In this document: piece by piece, positions 32,012-49,971 of the stretch
How positions within the stretch are numbered: the first letter of the stretch is position 1
Layout of the letters: each line of letters opens with the position of its first letter
Assembly (NCBI GenBank): GCA_964397855.1
Contig: CAYNKQ010000001.1
Location: 38,046 to 102,045 of the forward strand
Direction: 5' to 3'
Source of the DNA: an uncultured Candidatus Saccharibacteria bacterium
Lineage (GTDB): Bacteria; Patescibacteriota; Saccharimonadia; Saccharimonadales; UBA7683
Length of the DNA stretch: 64,000 nt
Notes under the pieces: model-generated
Told to the model about the DNA's origin: nothing
Database searches by the model: none
Seen by the model: the letters and a program-made list of their open reading frames with translations, nothing else
Translations under genes and position numbers: made by a program

Positions 32012-32043
32012 TTAGCGCCGTTCTGAAACTATAAGATCCTGCT

Positions 32044-32163: not shown

Positions 32164-32182
32164 TGTGTCTTATACTTAGGTC

Positions 32183-32776
32183 ATGAAACAGGTAGTCTTT
32201 ATACACGGCGGAACAACATTTTATAAACACAAGGATTATCTTAATTATCTCCGCTCAAAACCTATTAACATCAGCCGTCTAACCATACAAAAATTTTGGC
32301 CTGATAGATTACAAGAAGATCTGGGAGATGACTTCCAAGTTTTAGCTCCTCGTATGCCCAATGGCACTAATGCTAACTATGACGAGTGGGCCATATGGTT
32401 TGGGCGCATTGCAGAAGTGATTAATGACAACGTTATTTTAGTTGGCCATTCTTTGGGCGGCATATTTTTGGCGAAATATTTATCTGAACATGATTTTCCG
32501 AAGAAAATACGTGCTACATTACTTGTAGCCGCGCCTTACGAAGACGAGACCAATGAAGATCTGGCAAACTTCAAGATAACAGGTGGACTAGAAAAATTTG
32601 CCGAGCAAGGCGGAAATATAATCTTCTATCACGGCACGGACGACATTGTTCCTCTTAGCGAGTTGGAGCTGTACAAAAAATCCATTCCGAAAGCGGATAC
32701 ACACGTGCTTTCTGCTCAAGACCATTTCGTGAGGGAAGCATTCCCCGAAATCATTGAAGCAATAAAGAACATATAG
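32183..32776 (+). CDS. Alpha/beta serine hydrolase of the YdeN/RBBP9 family
   Basis: 197 aa. Nucleophile elbow ILVGHSLGG. Size and layout match PF06821-type serine hydrolases. Confidence 0.65.
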   Translation: MKQVVFIHGGTTFYKHKDYLNYLRSKPINISRLTIQKFWPDRLQEDLGDDFQVLAPRMPNGTNANYDEWAIWFGRIAEVINDNVILVGHSLGGIFLAKYLSEHDFPKKIRATLLVAAPYEDETNEDLANFKITGGLEKFAEQGGNIIFYHGTDDIVPLSELELYKKSIPKADTHVLSAQDHFVREAFPEIIEAIKNI

Positions 32777-32814
32777 AGTCGTCTCACAAATGTGCTACTT
32801 GTTCTAGTTAAATA

Positions 32815-32870
32815 TTAGGTCCTGTTTAATCGCAGTTTTGACTTTTTGCATGTTCACAACAAAACTGAGA
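32815..32870 (+). repeat. Cassette-boundary repeat copy 3 (degenerate)
   Basis: AGGTCCTGTTTAATCGCAGTTTTGACTTTTTGCATG... shares the AGRTCCTGYTTAAT-YRCAG left block and the GACTTTTTG right half with copy 2. Confidence 0.45.
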
Positions 32871-32909
32871 CCCCCATCATCATCAATACAGCTTTAATAT
32901 AATTTTATT

Positions 32910-33455
32910 ATGAGTACTGCAGAAAACTTACAAACAAACAATCCAGACGTGTTGCTTATTGAGCCTGATATTGAACGAGACGCCGCTCTTGGTGTTCAGT
33001 GGCTCAAGGGCGAACTAGGGCGATCAACACTTACTTCTATGGGCGTTTCCGACAAAGACAATAAGCCCACTACCCCTGAACACGAACGAGAGCGTGTCAG
33101 AGATTTCATCGAGGGGCAAGAACAGCTTAATTGGATGATTGAATATCAAGGTAGAGTTGTCGGTTCGGTGTGGGCAGAACTTAAGCAAGTCGGCAACGTA
33201 CCAGCCCCTGCTATTCATATTATGATTGGCGATCCTAATGTACGAGGTAAGGGTGTCGGGTATGCGGCAACCAGCAAAGTAACGGAGTACTTGGAAAATC
33301 GAGGGTTTAAGTCTATTTACTCAAGGCACCTGATAAAAAATAGCGGCGCAAGTGGCTTACTGCAATCACTTGGCTTTACTAATTTCGGAGAGCCATACGA
33401 TGATGATGACGGACTGGAATGGCAAAATGTAAAAAAGGAAGTCAAGGCCGAATAA
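32910..33455 (+). CDS. GNAT family N-acetyltransferase (aminoglycoside-acetyltransferase-like size and architecture)
   Basis: 181 aa. HIMIGDPNVRGKGVGYAATSKVTEYL is the GNAT acetyl-CoA-binding motif A (Q/R-x-x-G-x-G/A). Paralogous to 35408..35965. Confidence 0.7.
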   Translation: MSTAENLQTNNPDVLLIEPDIERDAALGVQWLKGELGRSTLTSMGVSDKDNKPTTPEHERERVRDFIEGQEQLNWMIEYQGRVVGSVWAELKQVGNVPAPAIHIMIGDPNVRGKGVGYAATSKVTEYLENRGFKSIYSRHLIKNSGASGLLQSLGFTNFGEPYDDDDGLEWQNVKKEVKAE

Positions 33456-33461
33456 CACTGC

Positions 33462-33540
33462 AGTCTGCCTTGATTACGGTTATAACTTGCTCTATCGTTG
33501 TGAGCCAAACAAATGCAACTCACATCTGTGGGTTGTTTTC
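33462..33540 (+). repeat. Cassette-boundary repeat copy 4 (left arm intact, centre replaced)
   Basis: AGTCTGCCTTGATTACGGTTATAACTTGCTCTATCGTTGTGAGCCAAAC then AAATGCAACTCACA. This forms a TGTGAG/CTCACA hairpin instead of the AAGTCAGAAC stem. Confidence 0.5.
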
Positions 33541-33829
33541 GTTTCTCTGGTGTTTGGTTCGGTTCGGTGACCTGAGATTGCGAAGGAATCTCGCAAGGTT
33601 ACGATTCGATAGTCAAGTGCTCTCGCAGAAGCTCGCTTCGAGAAAGTACGCAGAGTATACTCGGGTAATCCAGTCGCCGGAGCCACGAAGATTACATCTG
33701 TTAATTTTCATACCCCAAACTTGACTTCCGAACTAATACCTCTGATGAGGTATTTTTTGTTATACTAACAACATGATAAGCAAGTAATTCATCCCAGATA
33801 AATAACAATTAACAAAGGAATGAATTATT

Positions 33830-34609
33830 ATGCGTGTAAAAACTAAATACGATGACGTTAATAAAGTACTAGATCTTCTCACGGAGGGCTTAGTAGAGCT
33901 ACTCGGAGATCAACTAGTCGGCTTATATTTAACAGGATCACTGACCTACAGTGACTTCAATCGTGATAGCAGTGACATAGATTTTCTTGCAGTGCTTGAA
34001 ACCGGACTTGCTGATAGCCAGTTTGAGAAAGTGAAAAAACTTCACGAAGCGATTGCCAATGAAGTACCTCATTGGTCTAAGAATCTTGAAGGCTCTTATA
34101 TAACTCGAGGTATGTTAGGAAATATAGAGGTACCAGAGGAAAAACGTCCTTATGTAAACGGTGGCAAGGTTTCTTACTGTACCTATGGAAATGAATGGAC
34201 TATCAATTTGTACGCCCTTCAAGAATGCGGACAGGTTATCTACGGGGCGGGGGTGCAGCCGTTATTGCCAATAGTAACAATTGAGCAAGTAAGAGAATCA
34301 TCCAGGCAAGATTTACTAAAAGACTGGGCTCCTAAAGTAAATGATCCGAATGCTTTCACTCATTCAATGTATGACAGTGAACACTTAAAGAACTATGCAA
34401 CGCTAACTATGTGCAGAATACTTTACAGAGCAAAGAATGATAACATCGCCTCAAAGAAAGTTGCTTCTAAATGGGTTAAAGAGACCTACCCTGAGTGGAA
34501 AGATCTGGTTGAACGGGCAGAAGATTGGATTCACGGCAAAGAGATGGGCAGTGATACCAAAGTGAGGAAGTTTATCGAGTTTACTCTAGAACAAGTTCAG
34601 AAAGATTAA
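33830..34609 (+). CDS. Nucleotidyltransferase-domain protein resembling aminoglycoside adenylyltransferases (AadA/ANT(3'')(9)-like)
   Basis: 259 aa. LVGLYLTGSLTYSDFNRDSSDIDFLAVLE is the pol-beta-type NTase motif G[SG]-x9-13-D-x-D. Length and the C-terminal helical domain resemble ~260-aa AadA-family enzymes. RBS AAAGGA upstream. Confidence 0.6.
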   Translation: MRVKTKYDDVNKVLDLLTEGLVELLGDQLVGLYLTGSLTYSDFNRDSSDIDFLAVLETGLADSQFEKVKKLHEAIANEVPHWSKNLEGSYITRGMLGNIEVPEEKRPYVNGGKVSYCTYGNEWTINLYALQECGQVIYGAGVQPLLPIVTIEQVRESSRQDLLKDWAPKVNDPNAFTHSMYDSEHLKNYATLTMCRILYRAKNDNIASKKVASKWVKETYPEWKDLVERAEDWIHGKEMGSDTKVRKFIEFTLEQVQKD

Positions 34610-34789
34610 AGCTATTTGACGTCACGTGGCGGGATAGTTGGACTATCTCGTCATAGTACTTAGTTCGTAATATGCTTGGCAGAGGGAGCCAGAGCCAGCA
34701 GTGAAATACAGTGATCGGTTCCCGTGACCTGTTCCTGATTCACTCCTGACTCAAGTCAAGAAGAGTGACTTTAATAAAATTGCTCAAAA

Positions 34790-35284
34790 ATGCTGGAACC
34801 ATCTGAAAGGGTGGTTTTTGCATATTCACCCCTGGAAATAAGTTCTAGAGCCGAGCCGTTTCCTATTACAATGTTGCTGCCAGGCCAGGCCCCGCCATCG
34901 ATATGCAGGGCAAAAAAGGCCGTAATTATCGATGATCCACATCGGATGCCGCCTACCTTGAACACTGCAATAGGATTGGTCGAACAGTCGGAAGACGAGT
35001 TTAATGACCTTGGTGAAAGCATATTAGATCCGGTGCTTAAACAGCCGCAGCGACAACATCATCTTAAAGTTCATTATCGATCAAAATACAACAAACTTTT
35101 TGAGCGATCGCGTGAGGCGATTTATAGCAACGATGGGATTGAACCGATCTTTGAAGCAAAGCTAGCTGATGGAGCGCCTATTGATATTCTCGATGGTTTG
35201 GGTGGAGAGCTAGACGATAATGGCTACGATAAGAACTTTTACAAAATTTGCGAATCACCGAAGATTACTTGGCAAAAAAGATAG
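34790..35284 (+). CDS. Hypothetical protein (weak call; the opposite-strand ORF 34771..35022 competes)
   Basis: 164-aa ORF with no motifs. This region between the cassette-like array and the BGC is ambiguous. Confidence 0.2.
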   Translation: MLEPSERVVFAYSPLEISSRAEPFPITMLLPGQAPPSICRAKKAVIIDDPHRMPPTLNTAIGLVEQSEDEFNDLGESILDPVLKQPQRQHHLKVHYRSKYNKLFERSREAIYSNDGIEPIFEAKLADGAPIDILDGLGGELDDNGYDKNFYKICESPKITWQKR

Positions 35285-35407
35285 TAAAGCTGAATTCCGC
35301 ATACTCTTTACAAGAGGTGATGATGAACGAATCCCAAAAGTACAGAAGGATAGTCAAGGAAGGCTAATTCACCGAATTTGAATGTTTCAGGTTGCTACGT
35401 ATATCCT

Positions 35408-35965
35408 CTATACAGCCAATACGATGTTTTGCCATGCGAGCCCGTCACTATCCTTATAGGCAGCTCCGTCTTTCTTAAATCCGAGAGACTCATTTAATTT
35501 TGTTACAGCAATGTTGTCTGCGAGATGTCGAGAGTATACTGTTTTGAGTTTTAGCACATCTCGAATATAGTTTATCGCTGATTGCATTGCCGATCTACCG
35601 ATGCCTTTACCACGATAGTCGGGATTGCCTATCATGATGTGGATACTTGGGGATTTAACACCGTGATTTTCAAATAGCTCTATCCAGACGACGCCAATAG
35701 TTTTGCCGTCGGCCACGATAACACGAGTTATTTGCTTGCCGGAGTCCTCGAGATCGATAAATTCCTGCATAATGGCACGTTCACCTTCTAGGGTGGACGG
35801 TTCTATTTCGTTTTCTGAGTTGCCCATACTTAAGAGAGTGGCATGCCCTTCTGGGCGCGTAAACCAACTGTGTGCAAATGGGGTATCACGATCAACCTCC
35901 GGTTTTAGAAGTTGTATGTCGGTGTGCAGTGATTTCATGATTCTCCTATAGGCCTCGCTCGGCAT
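35408..35965 (-). CDS. GNAT family N-acetyltransferase (paralog of 32910..33455), co-operonic with the aminotransferase
   Basis: 185 aa. SIHIMIGNPDYRGKGIGRSAMQSAINYI GNAT motif A. Overlaps the upstream aminotransferase gene by 20 nt. Confidence 0.7.
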   Translation of the reverse strand: MPSEAYRRIMKSLHTDIQLLKPEVDRDTPFAHSWFTRPEGHATLLSMGNSENEIEPSTLEGERAIMQEFIDLEDSGKQITRVIVADGKTIGVVWIELFENHGVKSPSIHIMIGNPDYRGKGIGRSAMQSAINYIRDVLKLKTVYSRHLADNIAVTKLNESLGFKKDGAAYKDSDGLAWQNIVLAV

Positions 35966-37214
35966 AACGAGCTATAGCGTTCTCAAATTTTTCTATACCC
36001 TCGTGTAGTGTCTCGGTGTCTATATTCAGGGCAGGCATAAACTTAATAACCTCATTGTTGGCACCAGATGTTTCAATAATGAGGTTATTTTCGAAGCACA
36101 GTTGCCGTATCTGGCTCGCAGTCTCACTACTCTGGAGCTCAATACCGTAGAATAATCCTCGTCCTCGAACATCTACAAAAATATTTGGGTACTCCCGGAG
36201 TAGTGTCTCTAGTCTTTTGCGGACAATTAACTCTTTACTTTTAATTTCATGACTAAGATGGTCTGATCGCCAGTATGTCTCTAGGGCTTGTAGGGCGGTG
36301 ATAAAAGCTAAGTTATTGCCACGAAAAGTGCCATTATGTTGACCTGGGCTCCATATGTCAAGTTCTGGCTTAATGAGGAGCAGGGACATTGGTAAGCCGA
36401 TCCCAGATATTGATTTTGATAACACAATTAAATCAGGGTGGATATCAGCGAATTCAAAACTGAAAAAATCTCCAGATCTACCGCAACCTGCTTGAATATC
36501 ATCGATGATAAGTAAAATACTATGTTTAGTCGCTAGTGAGCGTAAATCTTTTAGCCAGTTGGCACTAGCAACGTTAACTCCACCTTCACCCTGAATGGTC
36601 TCGACTATGATGGCCGCTGGTTTATCTAGTCCACTGCTCGGGTCGTTCAGTAGTTTTTCGATGTAGGAAATACTGTCTAAGTCTTTGACGTAGCCTTCGT
36701 ATGGCAAGAAGGCAACATCATTAAGCGGGATGCCTGAAGCATTGCGAAATGATTCGTTGGCTGTGGCAGAGAGCGCGCCCAAACTAACCCCGTGGAACGA
36801 GTGTGTAAATGCAATAACGTTGCTGCGTCCTGTGTTCAGTCGGGCGAGTTTCAGCGCGGCTTCGATAGCGTTCGCTCCGGTTGGTCCAGTAAACTGTATT
36901 TTATATGATAAACTGCGTGGTTCAAGTATAATATCTTCGAATCCTTGAATGAAGTTAACCTTTGCATTAGTTGCCATATCGAGAGAGTGTACGATGCCAT
37001 CGGTACTAATATGGCTAACTAGTGCCTGAATTTGAGAATCCTCATTGTGTCCGTAGTTTAATGCGCCAGCACCACTAAAAAAGTCAATGTACTCCACACC
37101 ATCTTCATCCAAAAGACGCGAACCTTTTGCTTTGTTAAAAACTGCTGGAAAGACACGTACATAGCTGCGCACATTAGATTCGTATTTGTTTATAACGTCA
37201 TGAATAGAGCTCAT
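35946..37214 (-). CDS. Class-III PLP aminotransferase, diaminobutyrate--2-oxoglutarate transaminase (EctB/Dat)-like
   Basis: 422 aa. The N-terminus ...YESNVRSYVRVFPAVFNKAKGSRLLDEDGVEYIDFFSGAGALNYGHNE closely follows the EctB/Dat pattern (...E.RSY.R.FP.VF.KA.GS.L.DE.G.EY.DF.AGAGALNYGHN). Confidence 0.75.
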   Translation of the reverse strand: MSSIHDVINKYESNVRSYVRVFPAVFNKAKGSRLLDEDGVEYIDFFSGAGALNYGHNEDSQIQALVSHISTDGIVHSLDMATNAKVNFIQGFEDIILEPRSLSYKIQFTGPTGANAIEAALKLARLNTGRSNVIAFTHSFHGVSLGALSATANESFRNASGIPLNDVAFLPYEGYVKDLDSISYIEKLLNDPSSGLDKPAAIIVETIQGEGGVNVASANWLKDLRSLATKHSILLIIDDIQAGCGRSGDFFSFEFADIHPDLIVLSKSISGIGLPMSLLLIKPELDIWSPGQHNGTFRGNNLAFITALQALETYWRSDHLSHEIKSKELIVRKRLETLLREYPNIFVDVRGRGLFYGIELQSSETASQIRQLCFENNLIIETSGANNEVIKFMPALNIDTETLHEGIEKFENAIARYAERGL

Positions 37215-37258
37215 GGCGCCATATTAACATAAAAGGGTTTTTCCTCTATAATTAAGCC

Positions 37259-38677
37259 ATGTTGTACGATCACATTGTTATTGGTGGTGGTGCTATAGGC
37301 CTGGCGATTGCCTATCGGTTAAAGCGCGTGCGCAGCAACCAGTCTGTTTTGGTTCTTAATTCTAACGAGGATGCTACGGCATCATTGGCCTCTGGTGCAA
37401 TGCTCGGTTGTTTTGGAGAGGTAACCAAGTATACTCTTTTAGACGAGGACGCAAAGCGTAAGTTTGAATTGATGTATGCAGCGCACAGGCAGTGGGAAGC
37501 CTGGCGTAAGGAAATAGAAGAGTCGGCAGGTAGAAGTATCGAGCATATACCAGGAAGCTATATCATCTTGAATGCACACGGTGGCTCCCTGGATGATGAA
37601 AATTACAATGCCATGATTGCGGCACTTGATAAATACAGAGAACCCTATGAACTCAAAGATCCAAAAGATATTCCGGGCCTCAATCCAAATAGTCTAGCGA
37701 GACCGCTACGCGCAATATACCTCCCCAATGAGGGTTCACTCTCCAGTAATCAATACATAGAGGTTCTGACACTTGCCTGCGCGAATGTGGGTGTGGAGTT
37801 CTCGTCCATAAGCTCACTGGAATCGATCAACCGAAGAGAGGACGGTCAGTATCAGACAACCTTTGATACTGACAATATGGTTCTGGCATCAAATGTGATT
37901 ATTGCCACAGGTGCATATACCAACGAGGTAATCAAAAAGGTTACCCCTACCGTTAAGATGATGTCTGTTTTTTCGGGTAATGGAGTTGCCGCTGTAACTA
38001 AGCGTCAAATCGGCAAAGGCTTTAAGGCGACGGTACGAACTGCAAATCGCGCAGGATCTTGCGGGCTTCATGTTGTACCCATGGGAGACGGCTATGAGTA
38101 TATCGGTGCAACCAATGTGCTATATTCTCAGCCAGAGAGTCGTTTGACAATCGGGTTGTCGCACTTTTTGTCGCAATGTGCGATTGAACAGCTTGATTTA
38201 AACATTTACCATTCTTTTGTCGAAGCTTGGAGAGTCGGGAATCGACCCGTTTCTCTCGATACCATGCCACTTATCGGTAGGCTTGATCAGGGATTATATG
38301 TCGCGACGGGTACCTACAGGGATGGGCTACATTGCTCACCAACAATAGCTACGGAACTTGTGAACTTGATCAATGGAGTGGATGCCGATCTTATTACGAC
38401 TTTTGACCCTAAACGCTCGTTTGTCCAACTCATGTCAAAAAAAGAATCAATCGATGAATTTGCCATGCAGGCTGTGTCGGGTGCGTATGAAAACTGGCAC
38501 CGACCAACCTACTACATGGAAGATGATCTGGTCTATCAGGACGCGCGAAGGAAAGCTGTTGAAATTTACGATCGACTTGATACAGAAGTCGGTCTCCATC
38601 CGGATATCTTGATGCTTTTGGGGTCAAGTGAGAACACCATTAAGGATGTAGGTGCGTATTTGAGGAGCGTCCTATGA
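37259..38677 (+). CDS. FAD-dependent oxidoreductase (DAO/glycine-oxidase superfamily)
   Basis: 472 aa. N-terminal dinucleotide-binding motif IVIGGGAIGLAIAYRL. First gene of the plus-strand biosynthetic operon. Confidence 0.7.
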   Translation: MLYDHIVIGGGAIGLAIAYRLKRVRSNQSVLVLNSNEDATASLASGAMLGCFGEVTKYTLLDEDAKRKFELMYAAHRQWEAWRKEIEESAGRSIEHIPGSYIILNAHGGSLDDENYNAMIAALDKYREPYELKDPKDIPGLNPNSLARPLRAIYLPNEGSLSSNQYIEVLTLACANVGVEFSSISSLESINRREDGQYQTTFDTDNMVLASNVIIATGAYTNEVIKKVTPTVKMMSVFSGNGVAAVTKRQIGKGFKATVRTANRAGSCGLHVVPMGDGYEYIGATNVLYSQPESRLTIGLSHFLSQCAIEQLDLNIYHSFVEAWRVGNRPVSLDTMPLIGRLDQGLYVATGTYRDGLHCSPTIATELVNLINGVDADLITTFDPKRSFVQLMSKKESIDEFAMQAVSGAYENWHRPTYYMEDDLVYQDARRKAVEIYDRLDTEVGLHPDILMLLGSSENTIKDVGAYLRSVL

Positions 38678-39450
38678 GTTCAGAGAGAGATCTTATAAAT
38701 TCGGGCGGTAAGGTAAGTCGTTGGCCCAAGAAGCCAACTGAGCGAAAAGAGGTACTCGCGTATCTTGCGAGTAAGTTCATCTCTGACAGACCGTATGATG
38801 AAAATGAGGTTAACCAAATTCTAAAGCAGTGGCATACGTACGGGGATTGGGCGTCTTTGCGACGAGAGCTAGTCGGCTTTGGGTATGCAGTGCGAGATAA
38901 AAACGGTACTGAATACTGGTTTAGTACCGCCAGAAAAAAAACCGTTGAGAATATTCGAGATTTCAACCAAGATGCCGATACGGATCAAGTTCTGGATTTG
39001 CTAAAAGAATTTCAAAATCATTTAGCCCAAGTTGACAAGGAGAATGAAATTAGGAGTTTTTCGGGTGATAAGGACGCACGTCTATACCTTCAAAAAATGA
39101 TTGATGATGTTGCCGAGATGAACGGTAGATTTCTCGTACTTGATATGAGCGGGGAATTAGTTGGGTTTATTCAAGGAATCATCGATCCAAGGAACGATCA
39201 AGATAATGTTATGTACCAAACGACGCACAATGCTCAGATCGAGGGCTGGATTGGATTAGTATACGTTAAAGAGAATATCCGAGGTGGTGGATATGGGAGA
39301 AAATTAATAGAGGCAATGAGGCAGTATTTTACTGAGAATGGCTGTACGACACTTCGTCTTATTGTTGCTCACGACAATGTGGATACGGTCAACTTCTACC
39401 ACAAGTTTGGTTTTATTGATCGAGACATAGAGATGGCATTACCTCTATAG
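38674..39450 (+). CDS. DUF2087-like N-terminal domain fused to a GNAT acetyltransferase domain
   Basis: 258 aa. The N-terminal RWPKKPTERKEVLAYLASKF...ENEVNQILKQWHTYGDWASLRRELVGFGY pattern matches DUF2087. The C-terminal ...IRGGGYGRKLIEAM... is GNAT motif A. Start overlaps the upstream stop (ATGA). Confidence 0.6.
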   Translation: MSSERDLINSGGKVSRWPKKPTERKEVLAYLASKFISDRPYDENEVNQILKQWHTYGDWASLRRELVGFGYAVRDKNGTEYWFSTARKKTVENIRDFNQDADTDQVLDLLKEFQNHLAQVDKENEIRSFSGDKDARLYLQKMIDDVAEMNGRFLVLDMSGELVGFIQGIIDPRNDQDNVMYQTTHNAQIEGWIGLVYVKENIRGGGYGRKLIEAMRQYFTENGCTTLRLIVAHDNVDTVNFYHKFGFIDRDIEMALPL

Positions 39451-39453
39451 CGA

Positions 39454-42400: not shown

Positions 42401-45400
42401 TGCTGGGTGAGGCTGATCTCAAGGCTGCCTTAGCGATTGGAAAGGGTGAAATAAAGCTATACGACCAAGCCTCATTTTATGAGCGTTTTGTGAAAACAGT
42501 GCATTCTTATCCAGATCGAGTGGCTGTTAAGCATGGGGAAACTGTGACAACGTATAGAGATCTCGGTTATCTTGTTGAACACTATGCTCGCGTACTTGCG
42601 GATCATCATTTGGCGCCAGAGGCCGCTGTTGGTGTGTTGATGGAGCGATCTGTTGAGATGGTAGCTGTTATCGTCGCGCTGTGGCGAATGGGCCACGCCT
42701 ATGTTCCTATTGAGCCTGTTTTTCCAGAGCATCGAATCCGGTCAATTATAGAGACGACTCACATGTCATTGATTATTACCACATCGACACTTCTATCTCG
42801 GATGCCTCGCGAGAGCACGGCGGTCATTGTCGATGAAAATTATGAACCAAGTGCTACGAATATTTCAGGCACTAAGGTGACGACCGATACGCTGGCGTAT
42901 GTAATTTTTACTTCCGGGTCCACCGGCAAGCCAAAGGGTGTAATGATTGAGCACGGAGGTATGATGAACCATGCCGACGGAATGGTTGATAGGCTAAACC
43001 TTAATTTCAACTCAGTCATCGCTCAGACAGCCTCGCACTCGTTTGATATATCAGTTTGGCAGCTAACAACAATACTGCTCACGGGTGGATCTCTTGTTAT
43101 CTATTCAAAGGATGATCAAGCCAATATCGACACCTTTACATCGCAAGTATCAATCGATGGAATTACGCTTCTGGAGCTCGTCCCTTCTTATATTAGTGTT
43201 TTACTAGAATATATTGAAGGGAGAAAAATTCATGCTCGATTTGAGAGTATAGCTGCGCTGATATCAACTGGTGAGAATATATCTTGGCCAGTCGTCAGGA
43301 GTTGGACAGAAAACTTTCGGGATATTCCACTTATTAATGCATACGGTCCGGCAGAGGCATCCGATGACACAAATCTGTATATTTTTGACACTGTGTCCAC
43401 GATGAGTCACCGTGGCTTGCCAGTTGGTAAGTCTCTGCCGAACGTAGATGTATATGTCTTTAACAAATCATTGCAACCGCAACCGGCTGGAGTGCCGGGG
43501 GAAATCTATATCTCCGGTTCAGCTGTCGGTCGCGGCTACGTTAATGATGAAGCTCGGACGAAGGAAGTCTTTTCTATAAATCCATACGATAATACCCGGC
43601 TTTACAAAACTGGAGACATGGGGTATTGGTCGAATGACGGACAGCTTATGTATTTGGGGCGATCAGACTTCCAGGTTAAGATCCGTGGTTTTCGTATTGA
43701 GCTTGAAGAGATTGAAGCGCATATTATGGGCTATCCAGATGTACTATCGGTTGCCGTCGTCGTCTTTGAACATAACGGTTCTAAACAGCTTCATGCATAT
43801 TTAACATCCGAAAAAGAGATTGACACAGAGATGCTTCTGGCACACTTGCGAAGTCGCCTACCAGATTATATGGTTCCAGTGAGGGCGACCCAACTATCCG
43901 AGCTTCCACTGAACAATAGCGGTAAGGTTGACAGGAACCTCCTTACTAACAAGGAGAGGCTACGATTTAGGCAAGACGAAAGTGTGCCCATACAGCTGAC
44001 GAAGGAAGAAGCAGACGTCATTAGCGTGTGGAGTGAGGTGTTTGGACTCGATCACATATCAATTGACGATGATTATTACATGCTGGGCGGCGACTCAATC
44101 GCTTCTTTTAGAGTTTATGCAAAGCTTGCGGCTAAGGGATACAAGTTTCCACTTCAAGCTATTCTTGCACATCCGGTAGCACGTGATCTCGCAGCAGAGC
44201 TGCTCGTTACAAGAAAAACGAGTAATACCATGGCGAGTATTAAGGCAGAGACTGCTCTGCCGCTAACGCCGATTCAATCACGTCTCTTGTCGAACGGTCA
44301 CAAGTTGATTGCACAGAATGTATGGATCGATGGGTATTGGGACACGCAACGGCTCGGTTTGGCCATCCAGGTAGCTATTAAGAGGCATGGCGCATTCAGG
44401 CTTTCATTTACAAAAAGCACACAGAAATTTGAAAACGATATTCTTACTAGAAGAAACTTCACGTTTGTAGAGCCAGAAGTAGATAAGGCTACTGCGTTTG
44501 ATCGACTGGGCGACGACCTTGCGAATGGTGAGTTGTTATCGTACGGTGCGGTAGGGGACGACCACGCTATTACTAGGCTTTATATATCAGCAAACCACTT
44601 GGTGATTGATGTAGTCTCTTGGTCGATTCTGCTGGCGGATATCTATGAAGCGTATGATCATCCGAACGATAAGGCAGTGGCTATAGATTATAACTTAGGT
44701 CGGTGGGCATTATATCAACAGACAATAAAAGAGCCTCAAGAGCATCTGTTGTTGTGGCGAGATACTCTTTCGTCGGGTAAAGATGCTGTCAGAATTCTAC
44801 AAAATAAATTTGATGACTCGTTACCAAATGTGCAAGCTGTAAACAGCTCAGTTACTGTGGGTGATACTTTTATTGATGAAGCCCGTGTTTATGAATCTGT
44901 TATTGTTGGGCTAGAAAAAATACTTGGGGTAAAAGGTGTCAGTATTTTGGTTGAGTCACACGGTCGTTATGCTGAATCTTCAGGCGTGGATATCTCCCGT
45001 ACTGTTGGTTGGTTTACGGTTCTGTATCCAGTAGCGGGTAGTTATAAAGACATAGCGTCCGTCCTGAACGCAGATGATGACACTAGGCTGTCCTATGGTA
45101 GATTGATACAATCTGGGTCACTTCAGAAGCTGAGCGAACCACAAGTGATTGTAAATTATCTCGGCGACTTGGGATCAACCGGCTACCATTTACAGCGGAA
45201 CCGTCACGAGTTGCCACTTGATCGTGAACTAATGGAGATATCTATTTACAGACGACAGGCCGAGCTAATAATTGAGATGATGTTCTATGCGACGCCGATT
45301 GATAACCTGTTTATCGAGAGGTTGCAGAGTGCAATCGGCGATCAGCTAAGACGGGCCAATAACGTAGTGGACGACGACCGCCTAAGCACTATCTTGCGTA

Positions 45401-45420
45401 GATTGGAAGGTAACTCATGA
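39454..45420 (+). CDS. Non-ribosomal peptide synthetase, two modules: A1-T1-C-A2-T2-C(terminal)
   Basis: 1988 aa. A-domain cores occur twice (FTSGSTGLPK / FTSGSTGKPKG; FDGS / FDIS; NAYGPTE / NAYGPAE; YRTGD / YKTGD; GRxDxQVKIRG-like; NGKIDR / SGKVDR). T domains EGGDSLRAM and LGGDSIASF. The internal C has a variant HHIVLSA motif. The C-terminal ~370 aa form a C-like domain (NHLVIDVVSW). Confidence 0.9.
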   Translation: MFMKVAKKHLYDFIHEHAKYRPDTPALRDDTHRYSYDDLDRISNYFANQLVELDVSGKHVGLVYDQSAHSIILLLSIMKAGAVYVPVDANLPVDRLNSLLSKADIALLIKPIGSSYKNNEIPTVELSPVSGSELKDFPQLLDPIGGEVAYAIFTSGSTGLPKLARLSHSSVIGVMESLVDRYYIEGSDRVLQFANLAFDGSISEIFGAFVAGAELLVPSLSTRQGVTRLSDYMRDMVVDVAVLPPSLLTHLTIDYSPKTVVVAGEPCPAALAKFMVSKVEHFINAYGPTECSICVSTYEVPRNFNDTVVPIGLPLPNVKTLVVGEHGELTKPGQAGELLVGGPSLFEGYYDNPDKTKKSVRLHGGKKYYRTGDNVSEQDGFFVYHSRVGDYIKIHGLRISLLEIEDLIHEFSPKIRSVAVIVASVHQDDELVAFYASNEELPVSDVVTRLRSKLPEYAIPRQFIRMDRLPLSSNGKIDRRLLASRAKSGATLQKPQTGNTLKAIWQNALGKSSINDDTNFLLEGGDSLRAMRVLSEVDRAYATSLTLSNLFDHPTFGEFSRFIKMTSPSNRDDLSINTDKLSEYEKMLWSASSYSGNAAAYTLTELLKPDFKVDIKLLQKAADRMSNHFPASFYRYKLDNGELVRSSSLRGIGCVIRGSVTQDVLDEEIATLSHLPIDTATDSLISLHVFTLDNQTVIAIHAHHIVLSASIITSFIDTLWSLYLDIDHEPQVIESPIPLYDDKDKEFWRGAYDTSTEYVELPWVGARSPTPRNNGRTLQYTLNTPIEAALRHLGVTKYTFFRSIFSLILHQLSDQPSFYVGSSVDVRNADGLGGRPALLNTLPVPSVLDDTSLSFGEFARGSQQKIQEILDHRFLPLSEIVKLNKFEHDRLIGPFNILFDYIEKPDSYTVPGLGRVSSEQVFNDTSKYDLTLTVLESSSVTLQWEYDVDIINASDIERLAAMFIHVCRYISAHPDALVNEIALLGEADLKAALAIGKGEIKLYDQASFYERFVKTVHSYPDRVAVKHGETVTTYRDLGYLVEHYARVLADHHLAPEAAVGVLMERSVEMVAVIVALWRMGHAYVPIEPVFPEHRIRSIIETTHMSLIITTSTLLSRMPRESTAVIVDENYEPSATNISGTKVTTDTLAYVIFTSGSTGKPKGVMIEHGGMMNHADGMVDRLNLNFNSVIAQTASHSFDISVWQLTTILLTGGSLVIYSKDDQANIDTFTSQVSIDGITLLELVPSYISVLLEYIEGRKIHARFESIAALISTGENISWPVVRSWTENFRDIPLINAYGPAEASDDTNLYIFDTVSTMSHRGLPVGKSLPNVDVYVFNKSLQPQPAGVPGEIYISGSAVGRGYVNDEARTKEVFSINPYDNTRLYKTGDMGYWSNDGQLMYLGRSDFQVKIRGFRIELEEIEAHIMGYPDVLSVAVVVFEHNGSKQLHAYLTSEKEIDTEMLLAHLRSRLPDYMVPVRATQLSELPLNNSGKVDRNLLTNKERLRFRQDESVPIQLTKEEADVISVWSEVFGLDHISIDDDYYMLGGDSIASFRVYAKLAAKGYKFPLQAILAHPVARDLAAELLVTRKTSNTMASIKAETALPLTPIQSRLLSNGHKLIAQNVWIDGYWDTQRLGLAIQVAIKRHGAFRLSFTKSTQKFENDILTRRNFTFVEPEVDKATAFDRLGDDLANGELLSYGAVGDDHAITRLYISANHLVIDVVSWSILLADIYEAYDHPNDKAVAIDYNLGRWALYQQTIKEPQEHLLLWRDTLSSGKDAVRILQNKFDDSLPNVQAVNSSVTVGDTFIDEARVYESVIVGLEKILGVKGVSILVESHGRYAESSGVDISRTVGWFTVLYPVAGSYKDIASVLNADDDTRLSYGRLIQSGSLQKLSEPQVIVNYLGDLGSTGYHLQRNRHELPLDRELMEISIYRRQAELIIEMMFYATPIDNLFIERLQSAIGDQLRRANNVVDDDRLSTILRRLEGNS

Positions 45421-48275
45421 CGAGTCTGATTGTTGATATTTTGCCTACGACTCCCATGCAAGAGGGTATGTTGCTTCTTGAGCGTTCGTCAGCCAAAAAG
45501 TCGCTATATAAAGAGCAGTATGTAGCTAGATTGACCGGTAACTTAGACATCAGACTTTTTCTATCTGCATGGCAAAAGACAGTCGACACACACACGATAC
45601 TGCGAACAATTTTTGACTGGGATGGGCAAAACGACCCTGTGCAGATTGTACTGAGACAACACAAGGCAGACGTCAAAGTGGTTGATTCTCTTCAGGGTAG
45701 TCAAACAAAGGATGATGTAATCGCGGCTGAGGCGATTAAGGAGTTTAAAATTGATGTTACGCCGCCTCATCAGCTGTTGTTGGTCAGGATGAGTCCAAAC
45801 GACTACATCATGGTGTTTACTTACCACCATTTACTTCTTGACGGTTCTTCTGTGGCGAGCATCTTTAACTATTTTGCAGAACAGTATAACTCTCCTGATA
45901 CACTCCGGCCCGAGTTAAATAATTACGGCGAATATACTCGATGGGTGCTTGCTGTACCAAAACAGGACGCTATTAGTGCTTGGCGTACATACGCTGATCT
46001 TTCTCAGTTAGATCCAGAAAAAGGTGCAGTAGAGGATACTAACGATATAACTCAAGAATACTCCAGGGTGTTGACGGGGGATACAGTTGGTATGCTTTCT
46101 TCGCTCGTCCGAAAATATCATGTGACAATGAGCAGCGTGCTCCAGATTATGTGGGCGCAGACAGTCGCTCAAATGAACTCGAGACAGCTCGTGAGTGTCG
46201 GTTCGCCGGTAACCGTTAGGCCACTGGACGGAAGCCTCGACTCAATAGTTGGTTTATGCATTAATACACTACCCTATGTCGTGATGTTTGATGGGAAATC
46301 AGGATTTATTAATTTAGTTAAGCAGCATCAGCAGTCGTGGGGAGGGCTGATTGGGTTTGGGGGTTTGTCACTAAGTGACATTAAGAAGGCGCTTAAGTAT
46401 CGGCATTTTGGTGATACATTCGGGACACTATTTACCTATACAGATGAGCGAGACAGGGCCATGCCCAATCTGGTCGATGTAGAATGGCAGTTAGTATCTC
46501 ACGATGAAATTACGCAGTACCCGTTGTCGGTCGACTGCGTCCTTCGTGACGAAGCTCTTGAAATTAAGGTGACTTATCGTAGCGGGACGTATGACGAAAG
46601 TCTCGTGGCTAAAGTCGTCTCTAATTTCATTGGTATTATTAAAAGCGTTGTCGTCGATCCGAATCTGATTCCTCAAGTATCTGAAGAGTATGAGTCAGTG
46701 ACTCAACCCCCTGATGTGAGTTATGGCCCAACGGAGTTAGCAGGCGAGATTGCGGACGTATGGTCAATTGTATTTAGTGCGCCAGTATCTATTAACTCTA
46801 ACTTCTTTGATTTAGGAGGTGACTCAATCAGCTCACTTCGCATTGTAAGTAAGCTGTCCGAGCGGGGCATCGTTGTATCAATGCGCGATATCTTTGACGC
46901 CCCATCTCCATTGCTACTAGCATCTCGCGCCAATCGTCACACTGAGCCGCCGGGCAAAGTACACCGTACTATTGTACGATCAGAGGTGCATGATGAGGCA
47001 TTGCATCGTTTTGGCGATAATTTAGATACAATAGTTAAGGCTTCGAGTGTTCAGAGTGGAATATTAAACCGTTCCGCGAGCCGGGCCCAGCTCTACCATG
47101 ACCAGTCAACCTTTACGTACGAAGGGGTACTTAAAGTTGAATTATTTGAGCGGGCTTGGAATGAAGTTGTTAGGAATAACGACTCGCTATTGATGAGGTA
47201 CTTCCAACATGAAGGGATCTGGTACTGTACTAAGCTTAAGAGTGATAGTTTAGTAGTCAGATTCCGTGATATTGCCGAAGAGCCGAACCATAATGATCTA
47301 ATTCGGCGCGATATTGATGCCGATCTTCAGACGCCATTTAGTGTCGAAGATAAGCCATTGATTCGCTTAACTGTCTACCGGCAGGCTCGTGATATCCATA
47401 CGCTTTTTCTTAGCTTTAACATCCTGGTTACTGACGGGTGGGGATTTGCTTTTTTGTTGGACGATGTATTTACCGCCTATGAGCAGCTCGTCAAAGGCGA
47501 AGAGGTTCGACTAGTTGAGCGATTGCCCAGCTATACGGATTATCTTGGTGCTATAACACCAAGAGATATACTTGTCGGCCGACAATATTGGCAAGAAAAG
47601 CTTCGGAAGTGCGTCTCCCCGGGAGTTGTTATTGATAACTTTTCAAACCTTTCCAGTATGAGGGAAGTGCTGGATGATATGCAAACTGCTCGCTTACAGC
47701 AGTTAGCGAATGCGCAGAAGCTTACGGTAAATTCGTTAGTTCAAGCTGCGTGGGCAAGGGTATTAAATGGCCAATCGGGGGGTCAACCTGTTTTGTTTGG
47801 ATCAACAATTTCAGCTCGGTTACTGCACGGGGTGCATTATGATAACACGGTCGGGATGTTCTTCAACGACATTCCGGTAGTTGTGAGATGTGAAGAATCA
47901 GATGAAATTGCTAGCCTAGCTCGAAATATCCAGCGCGATTTTCAAGAGAGTGTTCGTTACGGGTATGTGTCGTCATATGAAATGTCTAAGATGTTAGGTA
48001 GGTCGTCGGAGCAAGCGCCGTACGATAGTATTGTGGTATTCGAGAATTACCCCAAAGTTGAAGAGGAGAGTTTGCGCAACAACTCGAGGGGCGGACTGGT
48101 CAACAGTGCGTTCTGGCGGCGAGACATGGCCGATATACCAAAAACACTGTACGTTGAAGTGATAGGCAATGAGACCGCTATTAGGCTCTCGTATAATCAA
48201 GATTTAGTTTCACGGCAGGAGGCAGAGGCTATGCTAGGGAAGTTCTATCGGGAGCTACTTTCATGTATATCATAG
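45417..48275 (+). CDS. Stand-alone NRPS C-T-C protein (no adenylation domain); second C domain lacks the active-site histidines
   Basis: 952 aa. C1 has canonical YHHLLLDGSS. T domain LGGDSISSLRI. C2 has FNILVTDGWG in place of HHxxxDG. Start overlaps the NRPS stop (ATGA). Confidence 0.8.
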   Translation: MTSLIVDILPTTPMQEGMLLLERSSAKKSLYKEQYVARLTGNLDIRLFLSAWQKTVDTHTILRTIFDWDGQNDPVQIVLRQHKADVKVVDSLQGSQTKDDVIAAEAIKEFKIDVTPPHQLLLVRMSPNDYIMVFTYHHLLLDGSSVASIFNYFAEQYNSPDTLRPELNNYGEYTRWVLAVPKQDAISAWRTYADLSQLDPEKGAVEDTNDITQEYSRVLTGDTVGMLSSLVRKYHVTMSSVLQIMWAQTVAQMNSRQLVSVGSPVTVRPLDGSLDSIVGLCINTLPYVVMFDGKSGFINLVKQHQQSWGGLIGFGGLSLSDIKKALKYRHFGDTFGTLFTYTDERDRAMPNLVDVEWQLVSHDEITQYPLSVDCVLRDEALEIKVTYRSGTYDESLVAKVVSNFIGIIKSVVVDPNLIPQVSEEYESVTQPPDVSYGPTELAGEIADVWSIVFSAPVSINSNFFDLGGDSISSLRIVSKLSERGIVVSMRDIFDAPSPLLLASRANRHTEPPGKVHRTIVRSEVHDEALHRFGDNLDTIVKASSVQSGILNRSASRAQLYHDQSTFTYEGVLKVELFERAWNEVVRNNDSLLMRYFQHEGIWYCTKLKSDSLVVRFRDIAEEPNHNDLIRRDIDADLQTPFSVEDKPLIRLTVYRQARDIHTLFLSFNILVTDGWGFAFLLDDVFTAYEQLVKGEEVRLVERLPSYTDYLGAITPRDILVGRQYWQEKLRKCVSPGVVIDNFSNLSSMREVLDDMQTARLQQLANAQKLTVNSLVQAAWARVLNGQSGGQPVLFGSTISARLLHGVHYDNTVGMFFNDIPVVVRCEESDEIASLARNIQRDFQESVRYGYVSSYEMSKMLGRSSEQAPYDSIVVFENYPKVEEESLRNNSRGGLVNSAFWRRDMADIPKTLYVEVIGNETAIRLSYNQDLVSRQEAEAMLGKFYRELLSCIS

Positions 48276-48967
48276 TAATTGATGTTACCAAACTATCTAT
48301 TGGAGTAAAGCAATATGCCTTAACGTTGTTGGACGAGTCAGAGAACGTGAGGTATTCTAGCTACCGACATTCAATTGATGCAGACTTGTTCTTATTCGGA
48401 AGGTTCTTGACTAGGCAGCTTATTTCACATTTTACAAAACGCACCCTGAACACTGTAACTATTAGAAGTGACAGTATTGCAGATAAGCCATATGACGTAA
48501 CAGGTGAGACTGAATTCAGTATTTCTCACAGTGGTAATTACGTTGCTGTCGCCGTGGGCGATGAACCGGTCGGTATAGATATACAGGTTCACGACCAAGA
48601 TGATATACAGATGTTTAATCCATTTTTTACCAAAGAAGAGCGTGTGTATGTAGGTAGCGATACTGGTAGATTCTACCGCGCATGGACAGCCATCGAGTCC
48701 TTGGCTAAGATAACAGGACTAGGGTTTAATGAGTCTCTTAAGGGCCGAATAATATATAATAACGGCTTTGAAATTGATAAATATATGCTAGGTAACGATA
48801 TAGTCTATATATCGTGCTTACTGGCAGACGACCAATTCACCCTTGGTATTTCAAACTATAAAGAGCCAGTTGTGACTGACCTTCCGTTTGGATGTATCAA
48901 GAAGGCACTTAACAATATCGATGAGTCGGCAATAATTTACTCTGGTAAAATACTATCCGAGGTGTAG
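48263..48967 (+). CDS. Sfp-type 4'-phosphopantetheinyl transferase
   Basis: 234 aa. FSISHSGNYVAVAV...VGIDIQ (G.D motif) and FYRAWTAIESLAKITG (W..KE[AS]..K motif). Overlaps the upstream gene by 13 nt. Confidence 0.7.
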   Translation: MYIIVIDVTKLSIGVKQYALTLLDESENVRYSSYRHSIDADLFLFGRFLTRQLISHFTKRTLNTVTIRSDSIADKPYDVTGETEFSISHSGNYVAVAVGDEPVGIDIQVHDQDDIQMFNPFFTKEERVYVGSDTGRFYRAWTAIESLAKITGLGFNESLKGRIIYNNGFEIDKYMLGNDIVYISCLLADDQFTLGISNYKEPVVTDLPFGCIKKALNNIDESAIIYSGKILSEV

Positions 48968-49971
48968 ATGTCGGTAGTATCGATATTTGCACCATTTTCA
49001 AAACCATTTACGAATGATCGGAACGCCTTAGGTGTGACCTCGTGGTTGTAGCCGCCGCCAAACAAGATTAGGGAGCGTATACTCATTTCACCTAACGATT
49101 GTCCGATCTGGCCATACTCTGCGTTATCCAGGTGTGTCAGTGGTGGTAGGTCGGGCCACTCGCGAGCATGCCCGTCAAAACCAGCCTCCACTATCAGGAT
49201 ATCTGTCCCGAAAGAGATAATCTTATCTTTTGCTCGCGCGAGTAATTGCATGTAGTCCTCATAAGAAACACCAATTGGAAACGGTAGATTTAAGATTGTG
49301 CCTTCTGCTGTACCGTTGCCCGTTTCGTGTGGGTAACCTGTGTGTGGCATTAATTCATCTGGATCAGCGTGAAGCGATACGTAGAGGATATCCGGGTCAT
49401 CTTGTAAGATGTCTTGCGTGCCATCGCCGTGGTGTACGTCAATATCTAGAATGGCAACTCGTTTTCCCGCTTGTTTTAGAGCTTCCGCCGCAATAGCTGC
49501 GTTATTCAGGAAGCAAAAACCATGATAGAATTCTCTTCCAGCATGATGCCCTGGCGGGCGGGCAAGGGCAATGGTCAGTCTTTTGCCTTCGTCGTTCAGG
49601 AGGCCATCGGCTGCTGCTATAGATATCTCTGCAGAGTTAAATGCCTGTTCAAGCGTGCCTGGATAGATAGCCGATGCATTGGTTCCATTATCTATATCGT
49701 AGCGCGATTTGACCGGTTCGTCTTCAGACGACGCCAAGCCTGCTTTATAGATGGCTTCTATCATGTTGGCGGAATGCAATTTCTCAACAATTTTAATCGT
49801 TTCAGGGTGTATCTCTGGAATAATAATCCACTCAGTTGACCTAGGGTCAGACAGTAGCTCGGTAACGACGCCATATAGACGTTCCGGAACATCCCAGGGC
49901 TGGCCATCTTCGTCGATCCATCCTTTATGAGCCTTATGGTCAGGGTTATGGTATATGTGACGATCTTTCAT
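48937..49971 (-). CDS. Histone-deacetylase-family amidohydrolase (acetylpolyamine/acetoin-utilisation AcuC-like deacetylase)
   Basis: 344 aa. ILDIDVHHGDGTQDI is the HDAC/arginase-fold zinc-site signature. Also has a GFCFLNNAAIAA motif. Convergent with, and overlapping, the PPTase gene. Confidence 0.8.
   Translation of the reverse strand: MKDRHIYHNPDHKAHKGWIDEDGQPWDVPERLYGVVTELLSDPRSTEWIIIPEIHPETIKIVEKLHSANMIEAIYKAGLASSEDEPVKSRYDIDNGTNASAIYPGTLEQAFNSAEISIAAADGLLNDEGKRLTIALARPPGHHAGREFYHGFCFLNNAAIAAEALKQAGKRVAILDIDVHHGDGTQDILQDDPDILYVSLHADPDELMPHTGYPHETGNGTAEGTILNLPFPIGVSYEDYMQLLARAKDKIISFGTDILIVEAGFDGHAREWPDLPPLTHLDNAEYGQIGQSLGEMSIRSLILFGGGYNHEVTPKAFRSFVNGFENGANIDTTDIYTSDSILPE

Follow-up and report, generated by a model that had tools for sequence, protein, structure and literature searches.

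A conserved non-ribosomal peptide synthetase gene cluster of Candidatus Saccharibacteria encoding N-acetyltransferases and an HDAC-family deacetylase

The window analysed here is a stretch of 64,000 nucleotides of contig CAYNKQ010000001.1 (assembly GCA_964397855.1) from an uncultured Candidatus Saccharibacteria bacterium. Its segment 35408-49971 is a tightly packed non-ribosomal peptide synthetase (NRPS) gene cluster of a Saccharibacterium, in which Gcn5-related N-acetyltransferases (GNATs) accompany a deacetylase of the histone deacetylase (HDAC) family. An initial annotation, made from the sequence alone, had proposed that these enzymes serve either an ectoine-like N-acetylated diamino-acid building block or an acetylated pro-product that is unmasked later. 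Open reading frame (ORF) calling and Pfam and NCBIfam profile searches located all the genes it had named at or near the positions it had given. Overall, the interpretation was partly supported: the gene content was confirmed, and the building block of N-acetylated 2,4-diaminobutyrate (Dab) was not. Three features had been overlooked, namely the FAD-enzyme gene of the operon (37259-38677), an epimerisation domain pointing to D-Dab, and the Saccharibacterial origin of the DNA.

Gene content and assembly line

Five genes of the plus strand form an operon in which neighbours overlap or abut, with junctions of -4, +3, -4 and -13 nt. The first (37259-38677) encodes a 472-residue FAD-dependent homologue of N-formimidoyl synthases (PDB 8gri/7xqa). 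It is followed by a 258-residue fusion of a DUF2087 domain with GNAT#3 (38674-39450; PF09860 and PF00583) and by two synthetases whose domains, assigned with Pfam, are adenylation (A), thiolation or carrier (T), condensation (C) and epimerisation (E) domains. NRPS1 (39454-45420) reads A1-T1-C1-A2-T2-E, and NRPS2 (45417-48275) reads C-T3 followed by a terminal C-like domain. The last gene (48263-48967) encodes an Sfp-type 4'-phosphopantetheinyl transferase (PPTase; PF22624 and PF01648). As initially annotated, a GNAT fused to DUF2087 thus lies directly upstream of the synthetases, its gene stopping 3 nt ahead of the NRPS1 start, and the HDAC-family gene lies at the cluster end (minus strand, 48937-49971; PF00850). 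The latter, for an acetylpolyamine-amidohydrolase-like deacetylase, converges on the PPTase gene, and the two 3′ ends share 31 nt.

At the other end, two minus-strand genes encode an EctB-type L-2,4-diaminobutyrate:2-oxoglutarate transaminase (35946-37214; TIGR02407) and GNAT#2, a 176-residue N-acetyltransferase of the Acetyltransf_3 family (RimL/MccE/SpeG-like; 35408-35938). These two genes had been thought to overlap. An overlap of 20 nt is obtained only with the longest ORF, which extends to 35965, whereas the start at 35938, supported by homologues, leaves a gap of 7 nt; the tight coupling itself stands. The EctB and FAD-enzyme genes are transcribed divergently from a 44-bp spacer. This spacer contains a sigma-70-like promoter match on the plus strand (TTAACA-17-TATAAT, 37224-37252) 7 nt before the first operon gene. 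Agreeing with the consensus at 11 of 12 positions, it is the best match of the region, in a comparison with the consensus only and with a number of matches in the region that is not above chance. The cluster has a clonable size of 14.5 kb.

The lineage of the DNA was deduced from several observations. AtpD, encoded at 60970-62394, shares 88-93% identity with its counterparts in dozens of metagenome-assembled genomes (MAGs) of Candidatus Saccharibacteria/Saccharimonadales, and these Saccharibacterial ATP-synthase genes share the contig with the NRPS cluster. The GC content is uniform along the window. For NRPS2, the nearest homologues, at 45-50% identity, were found in MAGs that bear the names Saccharibacteria or Microsaccharimonas. 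Saccharibacteria-type AtpD (89-90%) or this NRPS/HDAC also occurs in MAGs named Verrucomicrobiia, Dongiaceae, Rhodoglobus, Chloroflexi and Bulleidia (L011, L018, L019, L064, P0003 and L304); these mismatched names are probably binning errors.

A, T and C domains detected by Pfam, three GGDS carrier motifs and the Sfp-type PPTase identify the locus as an NRPS cluster. In order to examine substrate specificity, Stachelhaus codes were extracted by alignment to GrsA, which itself returns DAWTIAAICK at the canonical positions. Applied to unrelated matches, the extraction also yields the established codes for Asp, Ser, Gly, Ile and Val. The A1 code is DGSVVAAICK in the window and DGSIVAAICK, DASIVAAVGK, DSVTVAAICK or DSATVAAICK in relatives, which suggests an aromatic, Tyr/Phe-like pocket. 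The A2 code is DIWEITADDK in the window and DIWELTADDK in loci L003 and L007, one or the other being found in all soil variants. This pocket is acidic (E278, D330, D331). Four loci from human oral metagenomes (L098, L100, L302 and L306) read DIWTITADDK, with Thr for Glu at position 278, and a fifth (L305) keeps DIWEITADDK; the oral Thr278 may reflect a shift of substrate, for example to a shorter or modified diamino acid.

DIWELTADDK is the code that we took to be that of the Dab module of the pyoverdine synthetase PvdL, and text searches of the literature found no such string. The PvdL code was instead read directly. GTDB genomes were scanned for the motif NAYGPAExxDD, and mostly Pseudomonas was returned. 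The Pseudomonas loci have the motif in the last A-T of proteins ending in A-T-E-C-A-T, as PvdL does at its C-terminus, with DIWELTADDK as the code residues. These C-terminal modules carry FDISVW..LESVPS..MLPTGE..NAYGPAECSDD, that is, the same code. The reading was anchored on NAYGPAExxDD, which gives DD; pairwise or MAFFT alignment shifts at this point and misreads the residues as ADVK. PvdL is reported to act in the order Glu-D-Tyr-Dab (PMC12195549). The initial annotation had pointed to the A-domain codes as the place where Dab might show and, judged by its code, A2 is a Dab-type A domain matching the Dab module of PvdL. In the PvdL-type NCBIfam profile PRK05691, the match of A2 (365 bits) falls on the final A domain, that of T2 and the domain after it on the T-E region, and that of the leading C domain of NRPS2 on the post-E C domain. 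NRPSs of Firmicutes (L188, L192 and L216; Paenibacillus, Chengkuizengella) show the motif NAYGPAEASDD and a DIWE.TADDK-like pocket, so the PvdL-type Dab code also occurs outside Pseudomonas and Saccharibacteria.

In NRPS1, the carrier serines belong to GGDS motifs at residues 524 and 1545, and C1 has the motif HHIVLSA. The domain after T2 carries the E-domain motifs NHLVIDVVSW (HH in other variants), E(S/T)HGRY (ESHGRY in the window), TVGWFT and VNYLG. An epimerisation-type domain thus follows the Dab carrier and would yield D-Dab. The first C domain of NRPS2 is canonical (HHLLLDGSS), its carrier T3 lacks a cognate A domain, and its terminal C-like domain (FNILVTDGW, pattern N/H-I-xxx-DG) has Ile or Val in place of the catalytic second His in all six homologues. 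The NRPS2 family numbers about 11 members at 30-50% identity. A domain and motif search found no release domain (thioesterase, reductase or catalytic terminal C) in the NRPSs of the cluster. From this organisation, the core product would be an aromatic amino acid joined to D-Dab, to which a third unit, loaded in trans, may be added, and A2 would load free Dab rather than acetyl-Dab.

The supply of Dab can be ascribed to the transaminase. With TIGR02407 it scores 628.7 bits against a cut-off of 552.2, and it matches the Dab transaminases of the PDB (9s1q, E 1e-142; 6rl5, E 4e-133). By these matches, the protein encoded at 35946-37214 is, as the initial annotation had expected, a bona fide EctB-type Dab synthase and not a GABA or ornithine transaminase. 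No match to the EctA model TIGR02406 was obtained for GNAT#1, a further acetyltransferase encoded upstream of the cluster, nor for GNAT#2 or GNAT#3, at E <= 0.01. The reported absence of EctC was confirmed among the window ORFs scanned, and every ORF in 35.4-50.0 kb belongs to another family. Without EctA and EctC, identity as an ectoine cluster was rejected.

The first operon gene (37259-38677) encodes a homologue, at full length, of the N-formimidoyl synthases Orf1 (BD-12) and Fms14 (fortimicin). Its protein matches Orf1 (PDB 8gri/7xqa, where the title reads 'N-formimidoyl fortimicin A synthase') with E 2e-65 and 225 bits. Residues 4-442 align with residues 33-477, including the C-terminal extension beyond ThiO. 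Identity as ThiO was rejected for this FAD 'DAO' enzyme, with 118 bits against a cut-off of 251 and a far better match to Orf1. In the HMMER alignment, the equivalents of Orf1 C281, E426, R342, R368, T298 and F316 are conserved, and SCGLHVVP, SGAYE and VGNRPV align to AFACGLHLVP, TGYE and VGSRPA of Orf1. Orf1 oxidises glycine and, via an N-O-S adduct at Cys281, formimidoylates (or iminoacetylates) a primary amine; C281, E426 and R342 are essential, and the streptothricin N-acetyltransferase SttE no longer accepts the formimidoylated product (PMC10156733). At the acceptor site, the window protein has G and L in place of E312 and E313, so a different amine acceptor fits.

Recurrence of the gene set in soil and oral Saccharibacteria

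To see which genes belong together, we compared contigs encoding homologues of NRPS2, HDAC or GNAT#2, read within limited flanks that stop short of the downstream ends of the variants. The same gene set was found in more than 15 independent contigs with differing flanks and rearranged orders, and its association is therefore more than chance. Four arrangements occur in soil and human-oral Saccharibacteria, with an invariant set made of DUF2087, HDAC, at least one GNAT, PPTase and NRPS.

In variant 1 (the window and L002-L006), GNAT#2 and usually EctB occupy one strand, followed by FAD enzyme, DUF2087, GNAT#3, NRPS1, NRPS2 and PPTase, with HDAC convergent. The flanks differ at every locus, and EctB is present in L003-L005 and missing from L002. 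In one lineage, a gene of the PrnB family (PF08933) directly follows HDAC (L005, 14602-15651; L006, 10932-11981) and may encode an additional tailoring enzyme. The second arrangement, L007, comprises a methyltransferase, DUF2087, HDAC, NRPS1, NRPS2 (32% identical to window NRPS2) and PPTase, and, on the opposite strand, an Acetyltransf_3 GNAT followed by a class-III aminotransferase. This aminotransferase lies below the EctB cut-off (217 vs 552 bits). Variant 2 (L094, L096 and L101) combines a GNAT#2-type gene, DUF2087, HDAC, PPTase and a NodU-type carbamoyltransferase with A-T, C-A-T-E and C-T-C proteins; its HDAC is 53-54% identical to that of the window, within a tier that spans 52-58%. The oral variant (L098-L100 and L301-L307) was found in human oral metagenomes, in at least six species-level Saccharibacteria MAGs. 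It consists of DUF2087, HDAC (47% identical to that of the window), a GNAT#3-type gene, a PPTase-like gene, a carbamoyltransferase, A-T and a fused C-A-T-E-C-T-C protein.

The PPTase is kept in all variants. The FAD-enzyme gene is missing from L007, variant 2 and the oral variant; a carbamoyltransferase stands in its place in variant 2 and the oral variant, and L007 has neither. Both are amine- or hydroxyl-capping enzymes. In three variants, HDAC is co-directional with the NRPS genes in the same operon, and in the oral variant the GNAT follows HDAC after 17 nt. HDAC is thus a conserved member of the cluster and always occurs with DUF2087 and at least one GNAT, so that the acetylation/deacetylation pair looks intrinsic to the pathway. 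GNAT#1, a nucleotidyltransferase-like gene next to it and a 164-residue fragment (together 32910-35284) are absent from every related locus. The conserved cluster was therefore delimited to 35408-49971, and GNAT#1 was rejected as a cluster member, a role the initial annotation had given it.

Two further searches concern the method. A pattern scan of genome contigs with the back-translated C-T-C protein found no relative. A scan with an HDAC alignment was swamped by generic HDACs and gave two Saccharibacterial loci; a single-protein scan worked better.

Acetylation and deacetylation in the pathway

The deacetylase is intact. It matches PF00850 with 205.6 bits, and its best single-domain sequence matches are structures of acetylpolyamine amidohydrolases (APAHs; E 6e-43, 150 bits, 28-29% identity), as compared to 96 bits for the 'acetoin utilization protein'/HDAH group; no NCBIfam model matched. 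The top 16 fold matches of its AlphaFold2 model (pLDDT 90) are all APAHs, with TM about 0.8 over the full length. The His-His dyad, the Asp-His-Asp zinc site and the catalytic Tyr are all present, and 32 homologues all keep H142, H143, D176, D178, H180, D266 and Y308. Neither a signal peptide nor a membrane segment was predicted. On the basis of sequence and model, the protein is taken as an intact, cytoplasmic enzyme closest to APAHs. Every HDAC homologue whose context was looked up belongs to an NRPS cluster of this family, in three identity tiers (70%, 55% and 47%).

The acetyltransferases are of two kinds. GNAT#2 (PF13302, 53.8 bits) has diamine and spermidine acetyltransferases as its best PDB sequence matches (E 4e-6). 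The fold of its AlphaFold2 model (pLDDT 95) is about equally near NAT9, MccE, SpeG and RimL (TM 0.75-0.82), so the likeness to RimL extends equally to MccE and SpeG. It reaches no NCBIfam equivalog cut-off. Clustering at 90% identity divides its family into about 90 groups, and L002-L005 and L094 have an orthologue adjoining the NRPS cluster. In the Saccharibacterial contigs L088-L090, a stand-alone orthologue is found a few kb away from a heliorhodopsin gene (about 12900-13650). By sequence, GNAT#1 is a true paralogue of GNAT#2 (38% identity over 172 residues, E 4e-43), as the initial annotation had noticed. GNAT#3 is unrelated to both in sequence comparison; it forms residues 91-258 of the fusion protein (PF00583, 66 bits), is a RimI/Nat-like Acetyltransf_1 domain, and has a 41-43% identical counterpart in the oral variant. 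Ribosomal-protein acetylases had been put forward as the contrary identity of the GNATs. None of them reaches the corresponding cut-offs: RimI scores are 42.6 bits for GNAT#3, 19.6 for GNAT#2 and 16.9 for GNAT#1 against 86.4, and the RimJ score of GNAT#2 is 18.2 against 190. Scores with the Pat/ArsN models are 27 bits against cut-offs of 170-300.

DUF2087 occupies residues 1-89 of the fusion protein (PF09860, 76 bits). In all relatives, L002-L005 among them, DUF2087 and GNAT#3 are separate genes with touching stop and start (for example 3290-3559 and 3559-4065 in L003), and the fusion in the window is recent and in-frame. DUF2087 is a domain of BtmL, the cluster-situated modulator of bottromycin expression (PMC7113386), and by analogy the simplest reading is that DUF2087 acts as a cluster-situated regulator.

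The reading that we tentatively prefer is a transient N-acetyl mask on an amine of an intermediate or of the product, put on by a GNAT and taken off by the HDAC, after which the amine is capped. That two opposing enzymes are co-expressed suggests that they act at different stages of the pathway, and a temporary mask would explain their constant pairing most economically. In this scheme, a cluster GNAT would N-acetylate the Dab gamma-amine or the N-terminal alpha-amine of a carrier-bound or released intermediate. The mask would prevent self-cyclisation (to a lactam or diketopiperazine) and/or toxicity, until the APAH-like HDAC removes it in the cytoplasm. In the window, the Orf1/Fms14 homologue would finally cap the primary amine with a formimidoyl group derived from glycine; in sister clusters, a carbamoyltransferase would do the capping instead. 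The product would be a small cationic peptide bearing an amidine or a urea. A precedent exists in BD-12, where N-formimidoylation of a primary amine confers resistance to N-acetyltransferases (PMC10156733).

The two initial proposals can be judged from the same data. The ectoine-like acetyl-Dab building block is disfavoured because A2 has the same acidic pocket as the PvdL domain for free L-Dab, no EctA-like enzyme matches, and GNAT and HDAC persist in several variants from which EctB is missing. The acetylated pro-product is retained in restricted form: because the HDAC has no signal peptide, any unmasking would take place inside the producer, and extracellular prodrug unmasking was rejected.

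Several points weigh against the transient mask. We infer both that a pathway intermediate is acetylated and which amine this would be. The presumed A1 substrate rests on likeness to Tyr/Phe codes. The motifs of the window deviate, with HHxxxS in C1 and NHxxxD in the E domain, and the loading of T3 and chain release are unexplained by the domains of the cluster. The GNAT family varies, being of GNAT#2 type in variant 2, of GNAT#3 type in the oral variant and of both in the window. Finally, GNAT#2 orthologues of 59-70% identity occur alone on three long Saccharibacterial contigs without NRPS. These stand-alone copies are intermixed by identity with the cluster-linked ones and inseparable from them, so that GNAT#2 may have a role independent of the pathway.

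This last observation also feeds an explanation that we consider unlikely, self-resistance with reactivation. Here GNAT(s) would inactivate the finished cationic peptide inside the producer, to be reactivated by the HDAC no later than export. GNAT#1 and those GNAT#2 orthologues that stand alone in other Saccharibacteria would give immunity against the product of neighbours. The occurrence of the GNAT#2 family in loci without NRPS fits, as do the position of the paralogue GNAT#1 beside an aminoglycoside-nucleotidyltransferase-like gene, the closeness of the GNAT#2 fold to MccE, the self-immunity acetyltransferase of microcin C, and the use of N-acetyltransferases for self-resistance by streptothricin-type clusters (PMC10156733). 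However, a cytoplasmic HDAC that is co-transcribed with a GNAT in some variants would run a futile cycle unless compartment or stage separated the two activities. Moreover, no exporter is conserved in the cluster among the loci compared, and the cluster of the oral variant has no GNAT#2-type gene.

Management of the Dab pool, a modified form of the building-block idea of the initial annotation, appears decidedly unlikely. GNAT#2 would acetylate the free Dab made by EctB, in the manner of EctA, and the HDAC would free Dab for A2, the acetyl-Dab being self-made or scavenged from the ectoine pathway of the host. EctB and the Acetyltransf_3 GNAT are indeed translationally coupled in the window, and the class-III aminotransferase and Acetyltransf_3 GNAT of L007 are coupled too, by a 4-nt overlap. 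GNAT#2 weakly resembles diamine acetyltransferases, an APAH-like HDAC suits small acetylated amines, and the HDAC persists in variants without EctB, as expected if it supplied Dab. Against this stand the lack of any GNAT matching the EctA model at E 0.01, the L007 aminotransferase falling under the EctB cut-off, and the absence of an obvious benefit in making and unmaking acetyl-Dab in one cytoplasm. In addition, the known N-acetyl-Dab deacetylase, DoeB, belongs to a different family.

An enzyme switch is improbable. The GNAT would acetylate and the HDAC deacetylate the A10 lysine of the A domains, as AcuA and AcuC do on Bacillus acetyl-CoA synthetase. Source databases annotate HDAC homologues as 'AcuC-like', and the A domains belong to the same ANL superfamily, both keeping the PxxxxGK lysine motif. 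This motif is, however, universal in A domains and hence uninformative; no AcuA- or AcuC-type NCBIfam match was obtained, and the closest solved relatives of the HDAC, in sequence as in fold, are APAHs rather than the acetoin-utilization/HDAH group. We give very little weight to the idea that GNATs and HDAC of general polyamine or detoxification metabolism are mere neighbours of the NRPS, for although GNAT#2 orthologues exist without NRPS and GNAT#1 clearly lies outside the cluster, HDAC and DUF2087 accompany the NRPS in four different gene orders and at all three HDAC identity tiers, each HDAC context looked up is an NRPS cluster, and the flanks differ at every locus.

Flanking genes, novelty and comparison with known systems

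Positions 20000-35300 form a variable island between conserved Saccharibacterial polysaccharide genes (GT4, 14469-15623; Bac_transf, 16050-17468; Wzy_C, 17506-18861) and the NRPS cluster. In L002 and L099, too, genes of Wzy_C, Bac_transf and GT4 type are found in the vicinity of the cluster. The island has the look of a hotspot for integration or defence. It contains a serine recombinase (21085-22884), SRAP (25307-25987), a Y-family polymerase (26676-27971), a TIR-domain protein (28741-29550), an alpha/beta hydrolase (32183-32776), GNAT#1 (32910-33455, plus strand), an ANT(9)/AadA-like nucleotidyltransferase (33830-34609, plus strand) and the 164-residue helicase fragment (34790-35284, plus strand). 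A PADLOC scan of the 21-35 kb part gave weak matches only. The nucleotidyltransferase gene, whose ANT(9) and AadA_C matches lie below the cut-offs, starts 375 nt after GNAT#1, and the two may be a pair of small-molecule resistance genes. The fragment resembles the C-terminal part of Hhe/ProA helicases; it matches only this part (about 85 residues) of anti-phage ProA, Hhe and PDC-S37, is present too in L001, the Logan copy of the same contig, and is probably a gene remnant. Downstream of the cluster, 52985-56062 encodes a 1025-residue protein with a CBM_4_9 carbohydrate-binding domain, which is not conserved beside the cluster elsewhere.

Saccharibacteria are tiny parasites that are credited with hardly any natural products. 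Their genomes and those of other members of the Candidate Phyla Radiation (CPR) measure about 1 Mb and are generally described as lacking most biosynthesis. Natural-product gene clusters are rarely reported in CPR genomes (PMC7298704), and an NRPS/PKS search in two cultured oral strains found none (PMC8694215). The open-access literature on NRPS in Saccharibacteria, TM7 or Patescibacteria gave no description of the present cluster. NRPS clusters, Dab modules, formimidoyl synthases and acetyl protection/deprotection are each known; their combination is apparently undescribed in the open-access literature. Nor does the literature searched describe the use of an HDAC/APAH-family enzyme together with DUF2087 in such a cluster or, most notably, its conservation in Saccharibacteria of soil and the human mouth. 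Both the pairing of an HDAC-family deacetylase with an NRPS and the placing of an Orf1-type formimidoyl synthase in a peptide pathway are unusual.

It is conceivable, if doubtful, that the clusters represent the first recognised NRPS pathway family native to the CPR. They would make an amidine- or urea-capped aromatic-D-Dab peptide, with a mask removed by the HDAC that keeps the epibiont safe; the peptide would target or manipulate actinobacterial hosts or competitors, and stand-alone GNAT#2-type genes would confer immunity on non-producers. The cluster is a concrete candidate for a molecule mediating the epibiont-host relationship, and its interest lies in the host lineage and in a size small enough for direct testing.

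Among known systems, the closest parallel to the assembly line is the PvdL/PvdH pair of Pseudomonas pyoverdine, whose chromophore precursor contains D-Tyr and L-Dab and where an EctB/PvdH-type transaminase likewise supplies Dab. The same 10-residue Dab code is paired with an aromatic module and an E domain, and the positions in PRK05691 match. The domain order differs, A(Tyr)-T-E-C-A(Dab)-T in PvdL as compared to A(aromatic)-T-C-A(Dab)-T-E here, and Dab rather than Tyr would therefore be epimerised. In addition, the Saccharibacterial cluster is without the acyl-loading or Glu module, the downstream NRPSs, PvdP, PvdO and PvdN; it adds GNATs, the HDAC and the formimidoyl-synthase homologue, and its host is a CPR bacterium.

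With Orf1/Fms14, the FAD enzyme shares full-length homology, the FAD fold, the glycine-binding arginines, the NOS-bridge C281 and E426; the acceptor is presumably an amine of an NRPS peptide instead of the glycyl amine of an aminoglycoside. Like BtmL of bottromycin, the DUF2087 protein is small and encoded inside a natural-product cluster, but it stands alone at 87-112 residues or is fused to a GNAT, and has no ArsR-like N-terminal part. The likeness to ectABC consists of an EctB equivalog with a tightly coupled GNAT gene; here the GNAT is not EctA, no EctC was found among the ORFs scanned, the order is ectB then GNAT, and the genes are embedded in an NRPS cluster. The HDAC resembles the APAHs of Mycoplana ramosa, Marinobacter and Burkholderia in size, sequence, fold and all catalytic residues and zinc ligands. 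Its identity to them is no more than 28-29%, and its gene belongs specifically to an NRPS cluster, in the company of DUF2087. Finally, acetyl protection and deprotection are known from phosphinothricin tripeptide (Pat/Dea), puromycin (Pac/NapH) and arginine biosynthesis (ArgA/ArgE). As in these pathways, an N-acetyltransferase and a dedicated deacetylase would mask a reactive or toxic amine, whereas the deacetylase is here of the HDAC/APAH family and the GNATs are weakly like Pat/ArsN.

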